Positions 1,220-10,092 of a stretch of 10,543 nucleotides of DNA are shown piece by piece. This DNA is from a virus, in the UHGV virus genome UHGV-0380619. One strand, given 5' to 3'. The translations under genes and the position numbers were made by a program. The first letter of the stretch is position 1; each line of letters begins with the position of its first letter. The notes under the pieces are model-generated. The model saw only the letters and a program-made list of their open reading frames with translations. It did no database searches and was not told the origin of the DNA.

Positions 1220-1564
1220 TTACCATTTCGGCGGACTCTTCAGAGAACCCGTAATTATTCCCGGTAGTTTTCCTCTGTAGGTTATCAACACATCCTGCGC
1301 CTCTAAAATTACGGGGCGCTTTTCCGGCGACTGCTCATCCCCTTCACATAACCCGGCAGCAACATCCAGGAAGACCTGTCTGATGCTCCTTCTGGCTGCT
1401 GCCTCATAAAACTCCAGCGCGGCACCTTCAACACGGTCCAGCGAGATGTCCAGGTCAAAAATTTCACCGTCAAAGCGTTTTTTGTCCCGTAACGCTAAAG
1501 TTACCGTAACTTTATTCTCAAAATTGCGGATCCCTTTCACAATCAGTTCATAGTTTTGAGTCAT
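1220..1564 (-). CDS. DUF1327-family protein (YdfR-like) inserted between holin and endolysin
   Basis: 114-aa ORF. ATG at 1564 lies 4 nt after the holin stop and is preceded by GGGGAGAG. Translation MTQNYELIVKGIRNFENKVTVTLAL... resembles my recollection of YdfR, which sits between essQ and rrrQ in Qin. Family assignment is from memory. Confidence 0.6.
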   Translation of the reverse strand: MTQNYELIVKGIRNFENKVTVTLALRDKKRFDGEIFDLDISLDRVEGAALEFYEAAARRSIRQVFLDVAAGLCEGDEQSPEKRPVILEAQDVLITYRGKLPGIITGSLKSPPKW

Positions 1565-2399: not shown

Positions 2400-2475
2400 T
2401 GGTGGCCCTTGCTGGATTTGAACCAGCGACCTGGCGATTATGAGTCGCTCGCTCTCACCACTGAGCTAAAGGGCC
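2400..2475 (-). tRNA. tRNA-Ile2 (anticodon CAU, lysidine type; alternatively tRNA-Met)
   Basis: Reverse complement GGCCCTTTAGCTCAGTGGTGAGAGCGAGCGACTCATAATCGCCAGGTCGCTGGTTCAAATCCAGCAAGGGCCACCA: anticodon loop CTCATAA, T-arm GCTGG-TTCAAAT-CCAGC. Closely resembles E. coli ileX as recalled. Confidence 0.85.
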
Positions 2476-2515
2476 GGGAGCCGCATAATAACGACGCGTA
2501 ATTAATTCTTCAATA

Positions 2516-2794
2516 TCATCCGTTCTGGCTGACTAAATCCTGTACTTCCCGAACCGTCTGCTCAAAACGTTCAGTCTCCAGCTCAACGCCAATTGCACGA
2601 CGCCCGAGCGCCAGTGCCGCTTTCACTGTCGAACCCGACCCCATGAAAAAATCTGCAATCAGGTCACCCGGACGACTGCTAGCGCTGATTATCTGCTGCA
2701 GCATTTCTGCCGGTTTTTCGCACGGATGTTTCCCGGGATAGAACTGCACCGGTTTATGCGTCCAGACATCGGTATACGGCACCTGCGCCGTCAC
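2516..2794 (-). pseudogene. Truncated N6/N4 DNA methyltransferase remnant (C-terminal portion only)
   Basis: Translation carries the C-terminal AdoMet-binding motif region (DLIADFFMGSGSTVKAALALGRRAIGVELE). No DPPY-containing N-terminal half; the reading frame closes at a stop at 2876-2878 and the first candidate start is GTG at 2794. Confidence 0.7.
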
Positions 2795-2852
2795 GCCAAA
2801 ATACCGCCGCAGTCGGCATTCACAACCACCAGCGCATTTAACGTTCAGCCAT

Positions 2853-2877
2853 AAAAAAACCCGCTCGCGGCGGGTTT
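2853..2877 (-). terminator. tR'-like intrinsic terminator downstream of Q
   Basis: On the minus strand: AAACCCGC-CGCGA-GCGGGUUU hairpin followed by U7 (plus-strand A7 at 2853-2859, hairpin 2860-2874). Confidence 0.55.
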
Positions 2878-2945
2878 AAGCTGTGTGGCGAAGTAACCAC
2901 TCTTAACATACTGACATACTTTTTGCGGACCGCACTAATCATTTT
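2878..2945 (-). promoter_or_regulatory. Candidate late promoter / Q-utilisation region (pR'-qut-like), position inferred
   Basis: Directly downstream of the Q stop. On the minus strand there are tandem -10-like hexamers TATGTC and TATGTT (plus-strand direct repeat ACATACT-G-ACATACT at 2906-2920), followed about 40 nt later by the terminator. No convincing -35 found. Confidence 0.25.
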
Positions 2946-3326
2946 TTACTTTTTTAGCAGCCAGTCGTCCATCTCCAGTCTTACCCCCAGCACAGACAAA
3001 CATCCGTCAATAAACCCTTCGGCTATCTGCATCTCAATTCGTATTGCTTTTTCGCTTTTCTTTCTCGTCCTGGCTATCTGTCTTTTTGATATTCGCAACA
3101 AATAATGAGCAATGAGAAGCGAATACTCCTCAGGTTTTTTCTGCTTCAGACGAGCAAGACAGTTTTCAATGATAAGTCCGTCATCATCGCAGCAGGCCGG
3201 ACGTGGTTTAGTGGCAGATGGTAAAAGTCCTTTGAATCCGGCAGCGATCGGAGAATAGTCCACCCCGGTGTTACCACTTGCAGCCCATGCCCCCCAGCGT
3301 TCAAGAACCATCTGAATATCACGCAT
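2946..3326 (-). CDS. Q: Late-gene antiterminator Q (phage 82/21 / QuuD-like family)
   Basis: ATG at 3326 (MRDIQMVLERWGAWAA...) preceded by GGAGAAAG; the track's upstream start at 3341 is TTG. Cys-rich motif ACCDDDGLIIENC. Position immediately upstream of the tR'-like terminator and late region. Confidence 0.8.
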   Translation of the reverse strand: MRDIQMVLERWGAWAASGNTGVDYSPIAAGFKGLLPSATKPRPACCDDDGLIIENCLARLKQKKPEEYSLLIAHYLLRISKRQIARTRKKSEKAIRIEMQIAEGFIDGCLSVLGVRLEMDDWLLKK

Positions 3327-3343
3327 CAACTTTCTCCACAAAA

Positions 3344-4339
3344 TCAGGCCAGCACGCCAATTGCCAGCGCACGATCGATAAAACGAAATATCAGCTCCAG
3401 CTGGGAGCCATACTTCTCTTCAAATGCCACGGTATCCGCATGCAGCTCGTCGTGATGCTTTCTGCACAAAGGCAACACAAAGAGGTCATGCGCTTTTGTA
3501 CCCATTCCCCCCTGACCGTGGCCTATCAGGTGGTGGGGATCATCAGCTGGCTTTCCACAACATGCACACGGCTGTGTCTTAACCCAGCGCGTGTACTTTT
3601 CATTAACCCAGCGGCGACGTTTTGGGCGTAACATAAAAGACTCCGGCGACTCCGGATCCACTTTCAGCGCCAGCACCTTTTTCGCTTTATCCTGGATAAT
3701 GCTGGTGGCAGGAACCGAAGGAACAAGGTCACTCTCCCGGGTGACAGACGGCACAACAGGCTTCGGTAATCTCAGTGCCTTACGGGCTGCACTTTCCGGT
3801 AAGGCATCCGCCAGGTCATTACGAATCAGCCACCAGCACAGTTCCGGCATTGTCACAACGTGACTGTCATCAAAACCGAGATCACGGCGCACAACAGATA
3901 ACACCCAGCGGGCACAGTTATCCGTTGCCATTGATTCCAGCCGTTCCGTGAACTGATCGCGCAACTGGTTATCGCAGTGCCAGCACAGACGGATTGCGCC
4001 CGGAGCGTGCCGCATTGTGGTCATGTTCTCGCTGTGCCAGTCGGAATGAGGCCACTGGCAGCCTTTTTCACGAAGTAACCAGCTTTCAAGACATTCCACG
4101 CCACCAGCACGACGGATCACTGCCTCATTGCGGAACACGGCCCGAACGGCAGGATCATCCGCCAGCGGTTGTGATGCCGCCGGAACGGCACCACTGGCGA
4201 AAGATGAATAACGCTCCGGCTCAGGCTCCAGCAGGACACGCCCCTGCATAAACAGGGGCATCAGCTCTGAACCTGGCCTGAACAATACGATCCCCATACG
4301 CGGGGCAATTTCAGGGGTCAGTAGTGCTCTCACAGTCAC
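3344..4339 (-). CDS. DUF968-family phage protein with HNH-like Cys/His motif (YdfU-like)
   Basis: 331-aa ORF. C-terminal CACCGKPADDPHHLIGHGQGGMGTKAHDLFVLPLCRKHHDELH motif. Sits immediately upstream of Q as ydfU does in Qin. Start uncertain: the first codon at 4339 is GTG; internal ATGs are possible. Confidence 0.7.
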   Translation of the reverse strand: MTVRALLTPEIAPRMGIVLFRPGSELMPLFMQGRVLLEPEPERYSSFASGAVPAASQPLADDPAVRAVFRNEAVIRRAGGVECLESWLLREKGCQWPHSDWHSENMTTMRHAPGAIRLCWHCDNQLRDQFTERLESMATDNCARWVLSVVRRDLGFDDSHVVTMPELCWWLIRNDLADALPESAARKALRLPKPVVPSVTRESDLVPSVPATSIIQDKAKKVLALKVDPESPESFMLRPKRRRWVNEKYTRWVKTQPCACCGKPADDPHHLIGHGQGGMGTKAHDLFVLPLCRKHHDELHADTVAFEEKYGSQLELIFRFIDRALAIGVLA

Positions 4340-4340
4340 C

Positions 4341-5183
4341 TCAATGAACGGTATCGAGCAGCTTTAACAGCTCAGGAAATCGGGATTCGAAGAAATGCGG
4401 CTGCGTCTCGCGCGGATTTGCAGGACTGGTGATGTTCTTGCCGAACATGCAGCCTTTCGCCGTCAGCGACCAGAATTTTTTGATGTTGTTAATCGCGGTA
4501 CGGCTGTATCGTTCGCGTTGTTCAACGATCCCCAGCTTCACCATCTGGTGATATGCCTGATTAGCCGTCAGGCGGATACCATACTGTTTCAGCAGTGCAC
4601 TCAGCGACAGCGTGGGGCGACTTGAGCCATCAGGCGCGTCAGCAGGAGCATCAATGGCATAGCGCGGTGCCAGATTCGGTAAGCCAACAGCCTCCTGAAG
4701 CTTCTGACAGGCTCCAAGCACTGATGAGTTAGACAGGTTTAATTCCCGGCGCATAAAGTCCAGCAGGATCACGCCAGCCTGCATCTTGTCAGCAGCCTGC
4801 CCGGATAATTTTTCCGGTGTGCTGGTTACCATATCGAAAGTACGGATCACCTTCAGATGGAATGACGGGCTGATCCACATTGCATAGGCATACACCAGTT
4901 CATTGCAGACATACGTTCCTCCATTCCGCCCTTCTATTTTACTTACTGGTTTACTACCCAAATTTTGGGTAGTTTCATTGAATGAACCGACACCCAAATT
5001 TTGGGTATCGATCAATTCCTGAACCAGCTCAGTAATCTGTTGGCTGGAAAGAAACTTTCCCGGCTCCTTAGTTCTGGCATTTGCACCAGATGCAACAGCA
5101 GCCCGATGCAGATCGTTCAGGCTGTAACGCCCATAAGCATCACGACGAACTTCAATACCATCAATGACCATCAGATTATTCAT
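4341..5183 (-). CDS. KilA-N domain protein with KilAC/ANT-like C-terminal domain (antirepressor-like)
   Basis: ATG at 5183 (MNNLMVIDGIEVRRDAYGRYSLNDLHRAA...) preceded by GAGGAG. N-terminal KilA-N-like region and C-terminal antirepressor-like region, joined by a linker encoded by the palindromic repeats. Confidence 0.75.
   Translation of the reverse strand: MNNLMVIDGIEVRRDAYGRYSLNDLHRAAVASGANARTKEPGKFLSSQQITELVQELIDTQNLGVGSFNETTQNLGSKPVSKIEGRNGGTYVCNELVYAYAMWISPSFHLKVIRTFDMVTSTPEKLSGQAADKMQAGVILLDFMRRELNLSNSSVLGACQKLQEAVGLPNLAPRYAIDAPADAPDGSSRPTLSLSALLKQYGIRLTANQAYHQMVKLGIVEQRERYSRTAINNIKKFWSLTAKGCMFGKNITSPANPRETQPHFFESRFPELLKLLDTVH
4955..5008. repeat. Two copies of a 16-bp element ACCCAAATTTTGGGTA, each an inverted repeat, 36 bp apart, inside the KilA-N gene
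   Basis: Copy 1 at 4956-4971 (extended palindrome TACCCAAA-T-TTTGGGTA at 4955-4971); copy 2 at 4992-5007. They encode the repeated peptide TQNLG in the linker. Confidence 0.8.
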
Positions 5184-5202
5184 ACTTCGTTTCTCCTCTT
5201 GA

Positions 5203-5592
5203 TCAGGCGGCTGCACCCGCCGTTTTCTCGTACTTACTGATAGTGATCTCGACCTTCCCTTCCGGGATAACCGGTCCCCACTCCACCAGCATTCTTTTCA
5301 CCTGGCTGTCGTCTTCCCACACACCCGCGTGGGTCAGGGCGTCAAACAGCGCCTTGTTATAGTTGTCCAGATCGCGGATCCGGTTATCCGGAGGAAACAA
5401 CACGATCTCCACTGAAGCAGGTGCCGACGTTGGTTTCGGCAGACGACGTAACTGCTCAACTATTGCTGTGCACGCCGCACTCTGGAATTTTCGCCCCGCC
5501 GCGCTTATCAGGCTCTTACCAGCAAATGCCCCTTTGTTGGGGTGTCGCCAGTAGGTGTTCACGCTGGGTGGAAAAGGCAGAATCAGCTTCAT
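5203..5592 (-). CDS. rusA: RusA-family Holliday junction resolvase
   Basis: 129-aa ORF MKLILPFPPSVNTYWRH...RDLDNYNKALFDALTHAGVWEDDSQV, matching the RusA motif pattern. The start ATG overlaps the upstream gene's stop (ATGA). Confidence 0.88.
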   Translation of the reverse strand: MKLILPFPPSVNTYWRHPNKGAFAGKSLISAAGRKFQSAACTAIVEQLRRLPKPTSAPASVEIVLFPPDNRIRDLDNYNKALFDALTHAGVWEDDSQVKRMLVEWGPVIPEGKVEITISKYEKTAGAAA

Positions 5593-5915
5593 ACTTTCAG
5601 CCCCCTCTCATGTAACCAGTGGGCTGCACGCAGCCTGGCGTTTTCCTCACCAGCAAGCAGTGCGCGGATAATCCCGGCCACCTCGCTGTCGTCGTCCTTC
5701 ACCGCGGTATGAAGCGTGATGCCCCGGGCCACGCCACGCTTTATCGTGATGACGCCTTTTTTCTCCAGTGCGCGAAGATGCTCCACCGCTGCATTCACTG
5801 AACGGTATCCCAGCATGGTAGCCACCTCCTGATTGGTTGGCGGGAAGCCACGTTCTTTCTGGTAAGAAATCAGCATATCCAGCACCTGCTGCTGGCATTG
5901 AGTTAACGTCGTCAT
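5589..5915 (-). CDS. LexA N-terminal DNA-binding-domain-like protein lacking the S24 peptidase domain
   Basis: From ATG at 5915: MTTLTQCQQQVLDMLISYQKERGFPPTNQEVATMLGYRSVNAAVEHLRALEKKGVITIKRGVARGITL, which aligns by eye with the LexA N-terminus. No Ser/Lys protease domain. Start overlaps the upstream stop (TAATG); stop overlaps the rusA start. Confidence 0.75.
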   Translation of the reverse strand: MTTLTQCQQQVLDMLISYQKERGFPPTNQEVATMLGYRSVNAAVEHLRALEKKGVITIKRGVARGITLHTAVKDDDSEVAGIIRALLAGEENARLRAAHWLHERGLKV

Positions 5916-6403
5916 TAAGCCCCCACGTAATTCCCTGACAGATACCACTCTTCACCCGATACAGCGCGCTTGCTGCTTTTCCGTAAACACCGCTCACGAC
6001 GCGCAAGAAAATTGTTTCGCTCTTGCTGGGAGTGGCTTTCACGGAATGCCGCCATCCACACCGTTGCAGCACGACGGTATAAGCCCCTGGACTCCAGTTC
6101 TTCAGCCTGACGGGTCAGGCACAAAATCACCCAGGGGTCGTTAGTGCCGACATAGAAATTGCTCACAGGTATGGTTTCAAGAACAGGTTGCAGTTTCTCC
6201 TCCTGCGATATCTCAGCCTGGTGTGGGAAATGTCTGCGTGTTTTCCCTTCACAACGGTGAGCCACACGCCCACTCTGACGTAACTTGCTTGCTGACTGCA
6301 GTACGCGCTGCCGTGAGTAACCTGCAAAAGCATCCGCAATGTCTCCGGAAGTACAGCCCGGATGGGCTTCAATGAATTTCTGAACTTCATTCAAAAGACT
6401 CAT
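5915..6403 (-). CDS. PerC-family transcriptional regulator-like protein (YfdN-like) with an N-terminal HTH-like region
   Basis: C-terminal LTRQAEELESRGLYRRAATVWMAAFRESHSQQERNNFLARRERCLRKS resembles PerC/Pch proteins. ATG at 6403 preceded by GGGGGTG; the track start at 6409 is GTG. Confidence 0.6.
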   Translation of the reverse strand: MSLLNEVQKFIEAHPGCTSGDIADAFAGYSRQRVLQSASKLRQSGRVAHRCEGKTRRHFPHQAEISQEEKLQPVLETIPVSNFYVGTNDPWVILCLTRQAEELESRGLYRRAATVWMAAFRESHSQQERNNFLARRERCLRKSSKRAVSGEEWYLSGNYVGA

Positions 6404-6405
6404 GA

Positions 6406-7347
6406 TCACCCCCTGAATCCTTCCGGGATCTGGCTGTAGTCCACGTTGTCGTAACTGGCTTTGAAGTACGGGTCCTCACGTTTTTCTGTGTGCGTGCTGA
6501 CGGACGGCGATAAGCGCAGGGAAAGCTCATCCCATTTTTCCCGCAACTTCGACGGGCTGAGCACGTTACGGCACCAGAACGGATCACGGCTGACGCGGCT
6601 GTACATCTCGCAGATTTGTTTGTGAGTACGACCATCCTGCACACACATCAGGCGAATTTCGTTTGCCCATGCTGTCCAGTTCGGTTCTTTGGGACGAACC
6701 ACCTCGCCGTCACATTCGGCGGCCTGCTCGTACAGGGCGATGATTTTTTTCCAGAGCCACTGTGCGCAGGTCAAATCATCCTGCGTTCCCCACTGGCGCT
6801 TTTTAGGGCTGAATACAACCGCATCAGGATGGCGAGTTAAAAAATCCTGTTCAGCCGTCTGCGTGTCCGGTTGCAAAGCGTCCGGACGAGAAGGTTTTTT
6901 ATCTGACGGATCATGTTTTGATTTTACTGACGGATCCCCGCCAGATTCTGACGGGTGAAAACACGCTTTTTTGCCAGATTTCGACGCATCAAATTTTGAC
7001 GGGTCAGATTTTGATGCGTCAGATTTTGACGGGTCAGAATCTGACAGTTGAGAAAATGCCGCAGCCTGAAGCTTCGCAACGTTAAGCTGATAAACATTCG
7101 ACGCATTGCGGTTACCCTGGCGACGCGCCTTACGCGTTAACCAGCCTTCTGCTTCCAGCCGTGCGATAGCCGTTCTGACGGTACTCATCCCCGCGCCAAT
7201 CTGGCGGGCAATGGTTTCAATTGATGGCCAGCACACACCCTCGTCATTACTGAAATCAGCCAGACGGGCCATAATTGCCACACTGGATAATTTCATGCCT
7301 GACGCTGCGCAACCATCCCATACATAGCCGGTTAATTTGGTGCTCAC
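6406..7347 (-). CDS. Replication initiator (lambda O-like; HTH replisome-organiser N-domain with low-complexity linker)
   Basis: GTG start at 7347 preceded by a strong SD AAGGAGGTG with an in-frame TAA immediately upstream. N-terminal HTH region (LTGYVWDGCAASGMKLSSVAIMARLADFSNDEGVCWPSIETIARQ). Central pentapeptide repeats (SDPSK/SDASK) encoded by iterons. Confidence 0.8.
   Translation of the reverse strand: MSTKLTGYVWDGCAASGMKLSSVAIMARLADFSNDEGVCWPSIETIARQIGAGMSTVRTAIARLEAEGWLTRKARRQGNRNASNVYQLNVAKLQAAAFSQLSDSDPSKSDASKSDPSKFDASKSGKKACFHPSESGGDPSVKSKHDPSDKKPSRPDALQPDTQTAEQDFLTRHPDAVVFSPKKRQWGTQDDLTCAQWLWKKIIALYEQAAECDGEVVRPKEPNWTAWANEIRLMCVQDGRTHKQICEMYSRVSRDPFWCRNVLSPSKLREKWDELSLRLSPSVSTHTEKREDPYFKASYDNVDYSQIPEGFRG
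6901..7048. repeat. Origin-like iteron array inside the O-like gene (about 8 copies, consensus AGATTTTGACGGGTC, 15-bp period in the core)
   Basis: Repeated TCTGACGG(G/A)TC-type units at about 6903, 6926, 6947, 6980, 6996, 7011, 7026 and 7041. Each unit contains a short inverted repeat (TCTGAC..GTCAGA). An AT-richer stretch follows at 6891-6930. Confidence 0.7.
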
Positions 7348-8201
7348 TTACGCACCTCCTTATGCTTTTCGTTCAGTTCCGAGTCCACCAGCCCGGCAAC
7401 GAATACACCATCGTTGATGTAGTCGTAGAGCGATGAAGCCAGCGGAGACTGAACTGAAACCAGCATCGGATAAAGTTGTTCTAACCAAACGCGGTGAATT
7501 TCAGCCATGTAGAGGTAAACAACGTGGGCATTGTGCGCGACACATGAAGTATCAACCTTTCCGATCAGCGCCTGTTCCATCTGGTTAAAGGCATTGATGT
7601 ATGCCTCTTTGAACTGGGCAGCACGTTTACCCGTGAAACCCATAGCAAGAAACGCAAAGCCATCGCGGGTTATTTGATAGCAAGGTAGTTTGCGAGTACC
7701 GCCGTTGGGCTGGCGTACCAAAATTGATGTCTCCGCAAAATTGCGGGCACAAAACTCTGGAGAACAATCCAAAATGCGAATCTTTTTCAGAACATCGTCA
7801 TGACGTTTAGAGAAGAAGTCAGCAACAGCCAAAGAAGATGTAACAGCCTGACCATCAACGATGGCAATTTCAGGTTGAGAGAGGGTTGGGAGAGTAGTCA
7901 TAGTGACAGCCCCGGTAGTCAGTTTTTTAGAAAACTCACCACATGGGACGCCAATCACAGAGGTGGTGAGACGTACAGGGTTGGCGTTACCGGAGACTAC
8001 CGAACCCGGCCCGACCGAAGTCGGCCCTGTACGCCCCACCATAATTTGGGCGTAGCAATGCTCATGACACGAAAAAACCGCATGAGCGCGGTTATGCTCA
8101 GTAATCAATTTCAGGACGCCAATCCCGGCAACGGATTTTGCCGCTGCCAGAACAATATAACGCCCAGAATTATCAGAATCAATCATTACTGGTTTGCTCA
8201 T
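7344..8201 (-). CDS. Rha-family phage regulatory protein with an unassigned ~100-aa N-terminal extension
   Basis: Rha-like core from about residue 101 (MTTLPTLSQPEIAIVDGQAVTSSLAVADFFSKRHDDVLKKIRILD...). ATG at 8201 preceded by AAGGGA; alternative internal start ATG at 7901. The N-terminal 100 aa have coding-like codon usage. Stop overlaps the O-like GTG start. Confidence 0.65.
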   Translation of the reverse strand: MSKPVMIDSDNSGRYIVLAAAKSVAGIGVLKLITEHNRAHAVFSCHEHCYAQIMVGRTGPTSVGPGSVVSGNANPVRLTTSVIGVPCGEFSKKLTTGAVTMTTLPTLSQPEIAIVDGQAVTSSLAVADFFSKRHDDVLKKIRILDCSPEFCARNFAETSILVRQPNGGTRKLPCYQITRDGFAFLAMGFTGKRAAQFKEAYINAFNQMEQALIGKVDTSCVAHNAHVVYLYMAEIHRVWLEQLYPMLVSVQSPLASSLYDYINDGVFVAGLVDSELNEKHKEVRK

Positions 8202-9465: not shown

Positions 9466-10092
9466 ATGGAAACGGTTGGTCAGCGTATAAAAGCTCTGAG
9501 AAGAGTTACCAGAACGTCCCAGAAAGAATTGGGTAAATTTTGTGGAGTAAGTGACGTTGCTGTGGGGTACTGGGAGAAAGACATCAATGTCCCTGGTGGG
9601 GAAGCACTTTCAAAATTAGCGAAGTTCTTCAATACGTCAATAGATTACATTCTTTATGGTGCGGAGTTTGAAGGCAAACTCGTCACAAACATGCGCAGAG
9701 TTCCTGTAATCTCGTGGGTTCAGGCTGGGCAGTTTACTGAGTGCAGGACAGCAGAAGTGTTTAGTGAAGTAGACAAGTGGGTAGATACATCATTAAAGAT
9801 TGGTGATAACTCATTTGCATTGGAGGTTAAAGGCGACTCCATGACTAACCCTAACGGCCTCCCAACAATACCAGAAGGCGCAACAGTGATTGTAGATCCT
9901 GATGCAGAACCCCGGCATGGAAAAATAGTCATCGCTAGACTTGATGGAACAAACGAAGCCACAGTAAAAAAATTAGTTATCGATGGCCCTCAAAAGTTTT
10001 TAGTGCCATTAAATCCCCGGTACCCCAACATCCCGATCAATGGTAATTGCCTCATCATTGGTGTAGTCAAAGGAGTTCAATACGAACTCTAG
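9466..10092 (+). CDS. cI: CI-type prophage repressor (HTH-XRE N-domain plus LexA-like S24 autopeptidase C-domain)
   Basis: 208-aa ORF. N-terminal HTH (QKELGKFCGVSDVAVGYWEKD). C-terminal S24 motifs: GDSM (Ser nucleophile) and VKKL (Lys), with a QAG candidate cleavage region. Confidence 0.9.
   Translation: METVGQRIKALRRVTRTSQKELGKFCGVSDVAVGYWEKDINVPGGEALSKLAKFFNTSIDYILYGAEFEGKLVTNMRRVPVISWVQAGQFTECRTAEVFSEVDKWVDTSLKIGDNSFALEVKGDSMTNPNGLPTIPEGATVIVDPDAEPRHGKIVIARLDGTNEATVKKLVIDGPQKFLVPLNPRYPNIPINGNCLIIGVVKGVQYEL

Follow-up and report, generated by a model that had tools for sequence, protein, structure and literature searches.

The DUF968 gene and its start codon

The DNA analyzed here, a stretch of 10,543 nucleotides (10.5 kb, hereafter the window) from UHGV virus genome UHGV-0380619, carries on its minus strand a gene of the DUF968/YdfU family, which lies between a KilA-N domain gene and the gene of the antiterminator Q and encodes a protein with an HNH-like C-terminal domain (Table 1). 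A preliminary description had recognized a DUF968 protein in the open reading frame (ORF) 3344-4339, and this ORF is indeed present on the minus strand, its product being a full-length member of the family according to both Pfam (DUF968, PF06147; 271.7 bits against a gathering cut-off of 27.8, E = 3.5e-81; amino acids 162-328 of the 3344-4339 ORF, profile positions 2-171 of 171) and PHROG 96 (E = 2.9e-177). PHROG 96 is labeled 'HNH endonuclease' in PHROGs, and further PHROG families with the label 'HNH endonuclease' also matched the protein, while a search for an NCBIfam model for it found none. At the DNA level the gene is 97-98% identical to genes of phages cdtI, SfII, SfIV and mEp460 and of many phages converting to Shiga toxin 2 (Stx2) production, and the 3.3 kb surrounding it (window 2400-5700) have matches in 5,212 of 5,426 complete Escherichia coli genomes, a count that is not specific to the gene itself. 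Public annotations differ between 'hypothetical protein', 'HNH endonuclease', 'YdfU family' and 'DUF968 domain-containing protein', and the record of mEp460_4F5 (LR595868) mislabels the gene 'Phage antitermination protein Q'.

The gene is an ordinary and very common lambdoid-prophage gene whose HNH classification has already been published. RefSeq and PHROG 96 already name it "HNH endonuclease", and its family, fold assignment and genomic setting are already known. The view that the family is conserved but uncharacterized was correct, the literature found on DUF968, YdfU and YbcO consisting of classification papers only. Jablonska et al. (2017; PMC5714182) assigned DUF968 together with DUF1364/YbcO to group 7 of the His-Me finger superfamily, named YdfU, noted RusA, Q and antirepressor genes as neighbors and proposed a role in recombination or repair. 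A zinc-finger HNH motif in DUF968 proteins, as well as fusions of DUF968/HNH domains to Orf-like, Erf, Rad52 and RusA domains, were reported by Curtis et al. (2014; PMC4118853), and Kaur and Subramanian (2016; PMC4999995) predicted, on the strength of the treble clef in the YbcO structure, that YbcO is a nuclease. In a genome-wide association study of hemolytic uremic syndrome (PMC11950266) a ydfU allele signal travels with stx2B and a Q gene and therefore reflects linkage to Stx2 phages.

The preliminary description had left the start codon between GTG 4339 and internal ATG codons. Our analysis places the start at GTG 4333 and neither at 4339 nor at an internal ATG, because this codon is preceded by a Shine-Dalgarno sequence, homologs start at the equivalent codon and residues 1-30 are conserved, in contrast to the internal Met codons. 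The great majority of database homologs are 329 amino acids long and begin with MRALL, YdfU of E. coli K-12 begins with MRVLL at the equivalent codon, and distant homologs (30-40% identity) have an ATG or GTG exactly at the codon equivalent to GTG 4333. In addition, residues 1-30 are conserved as protein in Salmonella, Kosakonia, Phytobacter and Citrobacter and in relatives down to ~25-30% identity. GTG 4339 was rejected as it has no Shine-Dalgarno sequence at usable spacing and homologs begin two codons further on; likewise, at the internal ATG codons (codons 15, 27 and 31 of the 3344-4339 ORF) the Met is not conserved, a Shine-Dalgarno sequence is absent and the residues upstream are conserved as protein. 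All residue numbers below are counted from GTG 4333 and are thus lower by 2 than those of the preliminary description. The Shine-Dalgarno sequence of GTG 4333 overlaps the TGA stop codon (4343-4341) of the upstream KilA-N gene, a spacing that is consistent with translational coupling of the two genes. In the RefSeq record of phage cdtI (locus L001; NC_009514, 6079-6996) the gene starts at an internal ATG, 24 codons past the conserved GTG and 26 codons into the 3344-4339 ORF, which is probably a mis-annotation. Plus-strand antisense ORFs across the gene (3424-3582, 3591-3863 and 3994-4251) were without support, and no Rfam families overlapping the DUF968 gene were found.

Table 1. Coordinates of the DUF968/YdfU-family gene, its domains and motifs, and the adjoining genes in the window.
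Feature	Position	Strand	Details
DUF968/YdfU-family gene	3344..4333	(-)	329 codons plus TGA stop (3346-3344); start GTG 4333
Shine-Dalgarno GAGGTG for GTG 4333	4337..4342	(-)	read from the sequence; 5 nt from GAGG to start
N-terminal domain, unannotated, specific to this DUF968 subfamily	3854..4333	(-)	aa 1-160
Putative second zinc site	3962..4060	(-)	C92-Q-x6-H100 … strands 104-109, 112-117 … C117-W-H-C120-D-N
Helical middle and variable linker	3629..3853	(-)	aa 161-235; alignment and pLDDT
C-terminal YbcO-like His-Me finger (HNH) domain	3347..3628	(-)	aa 236-329; hhalign, profile-PDB hits, HNHc_6, PMC5714182
HNH core motif	3440..3568	(-)	C256, C259, H267, H268, D283, C290, H293, H294, H298
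Q antiterminator gene	2946..3326	(-)	Pfam Phage_antitermQ E = 1.6e-52; ATG 3326 after GGAG
KilA-N domain gene	4341..5216	(-)	Pfam KilA-N E = 2.4e-20; PHROG 129 aligns from aa 12
RusA Holliday-junction resolvase gene	5203..5592	(-)	Pfam RusA E = 7.4e-15

The C-terminal HNH module and the N-terminal Cys/His domain

The assignment of the C-terminal ~75 amino acids as an HNH/zinc-finger nuclease-like module is supported by our analysis. The Cys/His array can be read directly in the C-terminal translation, QPCACCGKPADDPHHLIGHGQGGMGTKAHDLFVLPLCRKHHDELH, where the residues are spaced as C256-x2-C259…H267-H268…D283…C290-x2-H293-H294…H298. The CxxC...HH...H...C...HH...H arrangement that had been pointed out at the C-terminus is therefore present in the translation, and conservation counts, for which 124 distinct C-terminal domains (C-domains) of the family and an alignment of 39 full-length homologs with 25-85% identity were used, place it beyond chance. 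D283 is invariant (124/124), and His is found at each of the positions 267, 268, 294 and 298 in 115-118 of the 124 C-domains (H268 in 118, H294 and H298 in 117 each), the H-H-D-H-H pentad formed by these five residues being intact in ~90%. The zinc-type ligands C256, C259, C290 and [H/C]293 read C-C-C-[H/C] in ~100 of the 124, and H272 (96/124) and H282 (110/124) are the least conserved among the residues listed in the preliminary description. In approximately 13 of the C-domains the pentad is retained although the zinc ligands have been lost, as would be expected if a structural zinc that can be dispensed with braced a catalytic site.

Profile comparisons agree with this picture. The protein matches Pfam HNHc_6 (PF16784) marginally above threshold (26.9 bits against a gathering threshold of 26.6), and the match is confined to the HNH core (amino acids 253-310 against profile positions 123-184 of 204). 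When the C-domain profile was aligned with YbcO (Protein Data Bank (PDB) entry 3g27) by hhalign, a probability of 80% and an E-value of 1.4e-5 were obtained, with the motifs PHH/AH, K..D and C-x2-[C/H]-H-D-E in register. Similarly, a comparison of the C-domain profile with PDB sequences returned YbcO (3g27) at the top, followed by the HNH motifs of McrA (6ghc) and IscB. The register with McrA is HH…D/N…LC-x2-[C/H]-H-x3-H, in which the spacing C-x2-[C/H]-H-x3-H is identical in the DUF968 C-domain and McrA, and H268 aligns with the His of the YbcO 'AH' and with the second His of the McrA 'HH'.

In the AlphaFold2 model of the full-length protein, which has a mean predicted local distance difference test score (pLDDT) of 89, a beta-beta-alpha unit is found at residues 265-299. 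According to DSSP it consists of a strand at 265-268, a strand at 286-289 and a helix at 291-299, with local pLDDT values mostly of 92-97 and a dip to ~75 in the Gly-rich loop of amino acids 271-280. H267 and H268 end the first strand of the model, D283 is located just before the second, and C290, H293, H294 and H298 are placed on the helix. With C256-x2-C259 before strand 1 and C290-x2-H293 at the N-terminus of the helix, the predicted structure has a treble-clef layout. Structure prediction of the full-length protein thus returned the elements of a nuclease-like fold in the C-terminus, and the likeness to HNH/zinc-ribbon nucleases suggested in the preliminary description is supported by the agreement between HNHc_6, the HNH PHROGs, the hhalign result for YbcO, the McrA register and the AlphaFold2 elements.

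Toward the N-terminus the C-domain is preceded by a linker that ends in a conserved basic motif, DPE.P..FM.RPK..RW, running into the C-domain. The lowest pLDDT values of the full-length model (71-82) occur over amino acids 190-230, and homologs including K-12 YdfU have insertions in the linker. The N-terminal domain (N-domain), when modeled alone by AlphaFold2, reached a pLDDT of 92.9 and a predicted template modeling (pTM) score of 0.74. It carries a Cys/His site of its own that is conserved as strictly as the C-terminal one, C92 being present in 163, [H/C]100 in 161 and both C117 and [C/H]120 in all of 164 N-domain sequences, among which Q93, W118 and D121 are also nearly invariant. This conservation makes the site a putative zinc-binding site. 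The predicted order of elements, a knuckle, a beta-hairpin (104-109, 112-117) and a helix from C117, is that of a treble clef, and the knuckle from C92-Q93 to [C/H]100 resembles the C-Q-x7-C knuckle of YbcO. Residue 109, at the position equivalent to the general base, is not conserved (His in 108/164, Tyr in 31/164).

Searches with the N-domain led to few matches. No Pfam family matched it, either alone or across 35 members, and PHROG 11007, a family of unknown function, covers amino acids 3-135. Neither Foldseek against the PDB and BFVD nor a PDB profile search gave a significant match. The hhalign comparisons of the N-domain with the C-domain (E = 0.03, 1.7% probability) and with YbcO (E = 0.33) were both weak, and comparison with lambda NinB (Orf) yielded a probability of 0.2%, so the domain is not Orf-like. 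Among 5.8 billion proteins the N-domain profile found only DUF968 proteins and fragments thereof and no alternative architecture. The N-domain is probably a subfamily-specific, zinc-binding, non-catalytic recognition domain. A rather unlikely origin would be that of a degenerate YbcO-like treble-clef/His-Me finger, which arose by internal duplication and directs the active C-finger, the protein and RusA making up a recombination module of the nin region in place of lambda Orf plus Rap. In this case the inactive N-finger may recognize branched or single-stranded DNA, and the subfamily may represent a tandem beta-beta-alpha-finger protein. The duplication stays speculative, since the N-domain searches found no significant relative. 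As far as we found, the N-terminal Cys/His domain is absent from the literature and is the only modestly new element of this analysis.

Genomic setting and mosaicism

Read on the minus strand, the window spans a lambdoid prophage from immunity to lysis. It opens with the gene of a cI-like repressor (on the plus strand, 9466-10092), with cro and with a CII/CP76-like gene, which are followed by genes for an Ash/Rha antirepressor, a replication initiator with internal repeats, a PerC-like protein and a protein with a LexA DNA-binding domain, then by the genes for RusA, KilA-N, DUF968 and Q, and finally by a methyltransferase remnant, three tRNA genes and the P21-type holin, DUF1327 and lysozyme genes. 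The ATG of Q lies 17 nt downstream of the DUF968 stop codon, and the same MRDIQ start of Q is found in a distant locus (L003). The gene was thus rightly placed immediately upstream of Q and in the nin region of many prophages by the preliminary description. For the KilA-N gene, ATG 5183 is likely to be the true start.

Phage HNH proteins with a terminase-associated role in packaging are known, and a small HNH module in a cos-type lambdoid phage might accordingly be taken for a factor of the HK97 gp74 type that assists the terminase in cos cleavage and packaging. However, packaging HNH genes adjoin the terminase genes and are late, whereas the DUF968 gene precedes Q in the early rightward operon, with ~3 kb separating it from the lysis genes and no terminase gene nearby, which argues against a packaging HNH protein. 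As the closest relatives, YbcO and HNHc_6, are also nin-region or replication-module proteins, we regard such a function as highly improbable.

The co-occurrence of the gene with its neighbors was followed in 65 IMG/VR prophage loci with enough flanking sequence, which belong to a set of 80 (L007-L086) near-identical E. coli prophages. RusA was located upstream of DUF968 in 60 of the 65 loci, as was the KilA-N gene (60/65), and the LexA-like gene co-traveled with RusA and DUF968 in 59. Q directly followed DUF968 in 62 loci and belonged to two unrelated allele types, a QuuD type (28 loci) and a lambda-Q type (34 loci). Rap/NinG, YbcO, Orf/NinB, NinH and NinI were found in none of the 65 loci, and lambda NinG had no match by tblastn in the 80 DUF968 loci. 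These data show that the LexA-like, RusA, KilA-N and DUF968 genes form a conserved block, which meets Q at a mosaic joint. The joint falls exactly between DUF968 and Q (corresponding to window ~3326-3346), the same DUF968 allele preceding either Q type. In three distant loci (30-40% identity) the gene always has the replication genes on one side and the late antiterminator gene on the other within the rightward early operon, and L003 has the same RusA-antirepressor-DUF968-Q order as the window.

The two Q types also bear on the possibility that the zinc finger has no catalytic function and that the protein binds DNA or regulates, its His-Me-like module serving solely to contact nucleic acid or a partner, for example as a transcription or antitermination accessory factor next to Q. 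The gene always adjoins that of the late antiterminator, its KilA-N, LexA-like and PerC-like neighbors are regulators, one family member has been annotated as a transcriptional regulator (PMC5714182), and a few members (P0190, P0191 and P0251) are without the HH dyad. However, the presence of two unrelated Q allele types beside DUF968 indicates that the gene is not co-inherited with a particular Q and argues against a Q-specific partnership. Moreover, the retention of the pentad, including the general-base His, in ~90% of distinct sequences and even where the zinc ligands are missing is the pattern of an enzyme, and a purely regulatory protein therefore appears unlikely.

The gene is also internally mosaic, its C-terminal ~110 amino acids being ~95% identical to K-12 YdfU and its N-terminal two-thirds ~45-50%. 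Alleles of the P0042 type display the reverse mosaic, with the first ~120 amino acids divergent and the remainder identical to the window protein. HNH genes of phages are often homing endonucleases, and together with the joint lying exactly at the DUF968/Q boundary and the mosaicism within the gene this could point to a free-standing selfish HNH homing endonuclease, which would cleave alleles that do not contain it, spread through recombination and contribute nothing to the life cycle of the phage. In lambdoid phages, however, it is normal for mosaic joints to fall at gene boundaries. In addition, the protein matches only DUF968 and HNHc_6 in Pfam and none of the homing-type HNH families, and it is without the DNA-binding modules typical of phage homing HNH enzymes. 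Unlike sporadic homing genes, the gene keeps the same operon position down to ~30% identity and has diverged over its whole length like its neighbors. Such a constant place, with divergence from end to end, speaks against a typical homing endonuclease, which we consider very unlikely.

Accessory genes are known to be carried in the nin region, and a nuclease encoded there might be directed against the host or competitors, acting in host-DNA degradation, superinfection exclusion or counter-defense. HNH effectors are common in defense systems, Cap5 and Cascade-HNH are the nearest, although insignificant, structural matches of the protein, and the KilA-N neighbor weakly matches the candidate defense model PDC-S22. 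In contrast, the DUF968 protein itself had no PADLOC match, no immunity, sensor or toxin-antitoxin partner is adjacent to it, and its linkage to RusA is stable. Its expression is confined to the early operon of the lytic cycle, so that a lysogen would gain no protection from it, and a function of this kind seems quite unlikely.

Several further features of the window were recorded on either side of the gene. Just upstream of rusA, two small regulator-like genes occupy 5589-6409 on the minus strand, one encoding 119 amino acids with a LexA DNA-binding domain only and no peptidase domain, and the other 164 amino acids with a PerC-like C-terminus. The replication-initiator gene (6406-7347) contains at 6975-7038 ~4 copies of a 15-nt tandem repeat, CAGATTTTGACGGGT, which encodes a repetitive SDPSKSDASKS stretch; by analogy with the ori iterons inside lambda O, these repeats are probably origin iterons. 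Rfam identified a C4 antisense RNA at 7959-8046 (82 bits) and isrK at 8071-8147 (69 bits), both on the minus strand and within the 5' part of ORF 7344-8201, the product of which combines Phage_ASH and Phage_pRha. The 7959-8147 region looks like a c4-controlled antirepressor module of the P1/P7 type in a lambdoid early-right region, and the true protein start of ORF 7344-8201 is probably downstream of the two RNAs. On the other side, a strong intrinsic terminator (2857-2877, minus strand), an 8-bp GC-rich stem followed by a T-run, is situated ~70 nt downstream of the Q stop codon in the position expected for tR' of the late-operon leader. The 92-amino-acid ORF at 2516-2794 (minus strand) matches only positions 137-220 of the 221 positions of the N6_N4 DNA methylase profile and is the truncated remnant of a methyltransferase that is intact (~1 kb) at the same place in phage cdtI. 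Three tRNA genes, Met-CAT (2400-2475), Arg-TCG (2316-2392) and Arg-TCT (2226-2302), all on the minus strand, are followed by the small RNA STnc100 (1950-2149, 133 bits), and all of them lie between Q and the holin gene. In Stx phages the position of these tRNA genes is occupied by ileZ-argN-argO and stx, and no toxin gene was found at the tRNA/STnc100 position (1950-2475) of the window. The holin and lysozyme genes are separated by a DUF1327 gene (1220-1564, minus strand), just as ydfR separates essQ from rrrQ in the Qin prophage of K-12.

Proposed role and comparison with known systems

On the basis of the family membership, motif conservation, predicted fold elements, gene position and start that were established above, we infer zinc binding, catalytic residue roles, nuclease activity, a substrate and a biological role for the protein. 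It would have two domains and be a delayed-early product of a lambdoid prophage, its gene, which lies between the replication genes and Q, being transcribed together with the nin region. The C-terminal ~75 residues would form a His-Me finger (beta-beta-alpha-metal) nuclease module homologous to YbcO. A structural zinc on C256, C259, C290 and H293 would brace the hairpin and the helix in a treble-clef arrangement. The alignment with McrA and YbcO, together with what is generally known of HNH enzymes, suggests H268, which closes the first strand, as the general base, and H267, H294, H298 and D283 as ligands of the catalytic divalent cation. The N-terminal 160-residue domain would most likely serve the recognition of a substrate (DNA structure) or a partner and not catalysis. 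Most likely the protein would belong to one module with the RusA resolvase and would cut or trim intermediates that arise when phage DNA is replicated or recombined, a role that would be analogous to those of lambda Rap/NinG and of the YbcO-RusA pair of DLP12/phage 82. Homology, conservation and neighborhood together lead us to favor, as reasonably probable, an active nuclease of the zinc-braced one-metal His-Me type. The specific role on phage replication or recombination intermediates alongside RusA, proposed by analogy, is held less firmly but still as probable. The combination of RusA with a group-7 HNH protein is consistent with an alternative to lambda Rap, comparable to ybcO abutting rusA in DLP12.

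Several observations weigh against this proposal. PDB-sequence searches with the single sequence gave only a weak YbcO match (E = 1.3) and those with the full-length profile gave nothing, the link to YbcO having surfaced only with the C-domain sub-alignment. Foldseek with the full-length model against the PDB returned nothing significant (all E-values at least 0.9), although in favor of the proposal HNH nucleases, namely Cap5, Cascade-HNH, IscB and ScoMcrA, were the only recurrent class among the weak matches, that to Cap5 (8fmf_A) having a probability of 0.60 and a root-mean-square deviation of 4.5 over 105 columns. Since the 65 loci are closely related, the RusA linkage and the absence of NinG and YbcO amount to few independent observations, and a recognizable RusA was not seen in two of the three distant loci. 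The role in recombination, moreover, is argued by analogy and neighborhood only, and the searchable literature contains no experiments on YdfU or any other DUF968 protein.

A large share of the prophages of E. coli, Shigella and Salmonella, Stx2-converting phages among them, carry DUF968/YdfU genes. A defined activity would fill a remaining blank in the lambdoid nin region and in the 'y-ome' of E. coli K-12, and would tell whether the HNH module linked to RusA can functionally stand in for Rap/NinG. The present analysis adds little by way of discovery; useful in it are the corrected start and the account of the Cys/His domain at the N-terminus.

Among known systems, the canonical HNH nucleases, such as McrA (6ghc), the HNH domains of IscB and Cas9 and Cap5 of the cyclic oligonucleotide-based antiphage signaling system (CBASS), have the same motif register (HH … D/N … L-C-x2-[C/H]-H-x3-H), although their matches to the window protein are all insignificant (E = 0.5-4). 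In contrast to them, the window protein has an invariant Asp in place of the N of H-N-H and a longer Gly-rich loop, GHGQGGMGTK, between the strands. Lambda Rap is a structure-specific HNH endonuclease whose activity on D-loops and junctions is experimentally established. Rap/NinG (PF05766) belongs to the same superfamily and the same neighborhood, lambda ninG being located 0.8 kb upstream of Q, but it is a member of His-Me group 24 and DUF968 of group 7 (PMC5714182), and Pfam NinG did not match the window protein. The HNHc_6 Orf-HNH fusions of Listeria and Staphylococcus phages contain a homologous HNH core and are likewise proteins of replication/recombination modules (PMC4118853), but they differ in having a lambda-Orf-like N-terminal domain, unlike the N-domain of the window protein.

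The founding member of PF06147, K-12 YdfU (b1560) of the cryptic prophage Qin, shares with the window protein 57% identity from end to end as well as the two-domain layout and the MR(A/V)LL start, its gene (L087:3256-4305) lying directly upstream of the Q homolog ydfT/quuQ. It differs by a 20-amino-acid insertion in the linker and by the much greater divergence of its N-terminal two-thirds, and Qin carries rem-hokD-relBE in place of the RusA/KilA-N module found upstream in the window. YbcO of DLP12/phage 82 (PF07102, formerly DUF1364) is the only relative with a solved structure (3g27), and both PMC4999995 and PMC5714182 predict it to be a nuclease. Whereas YbcO is a single domain of 96 amino acids, the window protein has 235 additional amino acids in its N-domain and linker; furthermore, the first zinc knuckle is C-x2-C in the window protein compared to C-x7-C in YbcO, and the fourth ligand is His compared to Cys. 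Pfam YbcO (PF07102) did not match the window protein at E <= 0.01 and the homology was seen only in profile-to-sequence comparison, so the window protein is a relative of this family and not a member. Nevertheless, YbcO has the treble-clef zinc site and the His-Me finger, aligned with the window C-domain across AH/HH, K..D and C-x2-C/H-H-D-E, and it shares the nin-region setting, its gene adjoining rusA upstream of Q.

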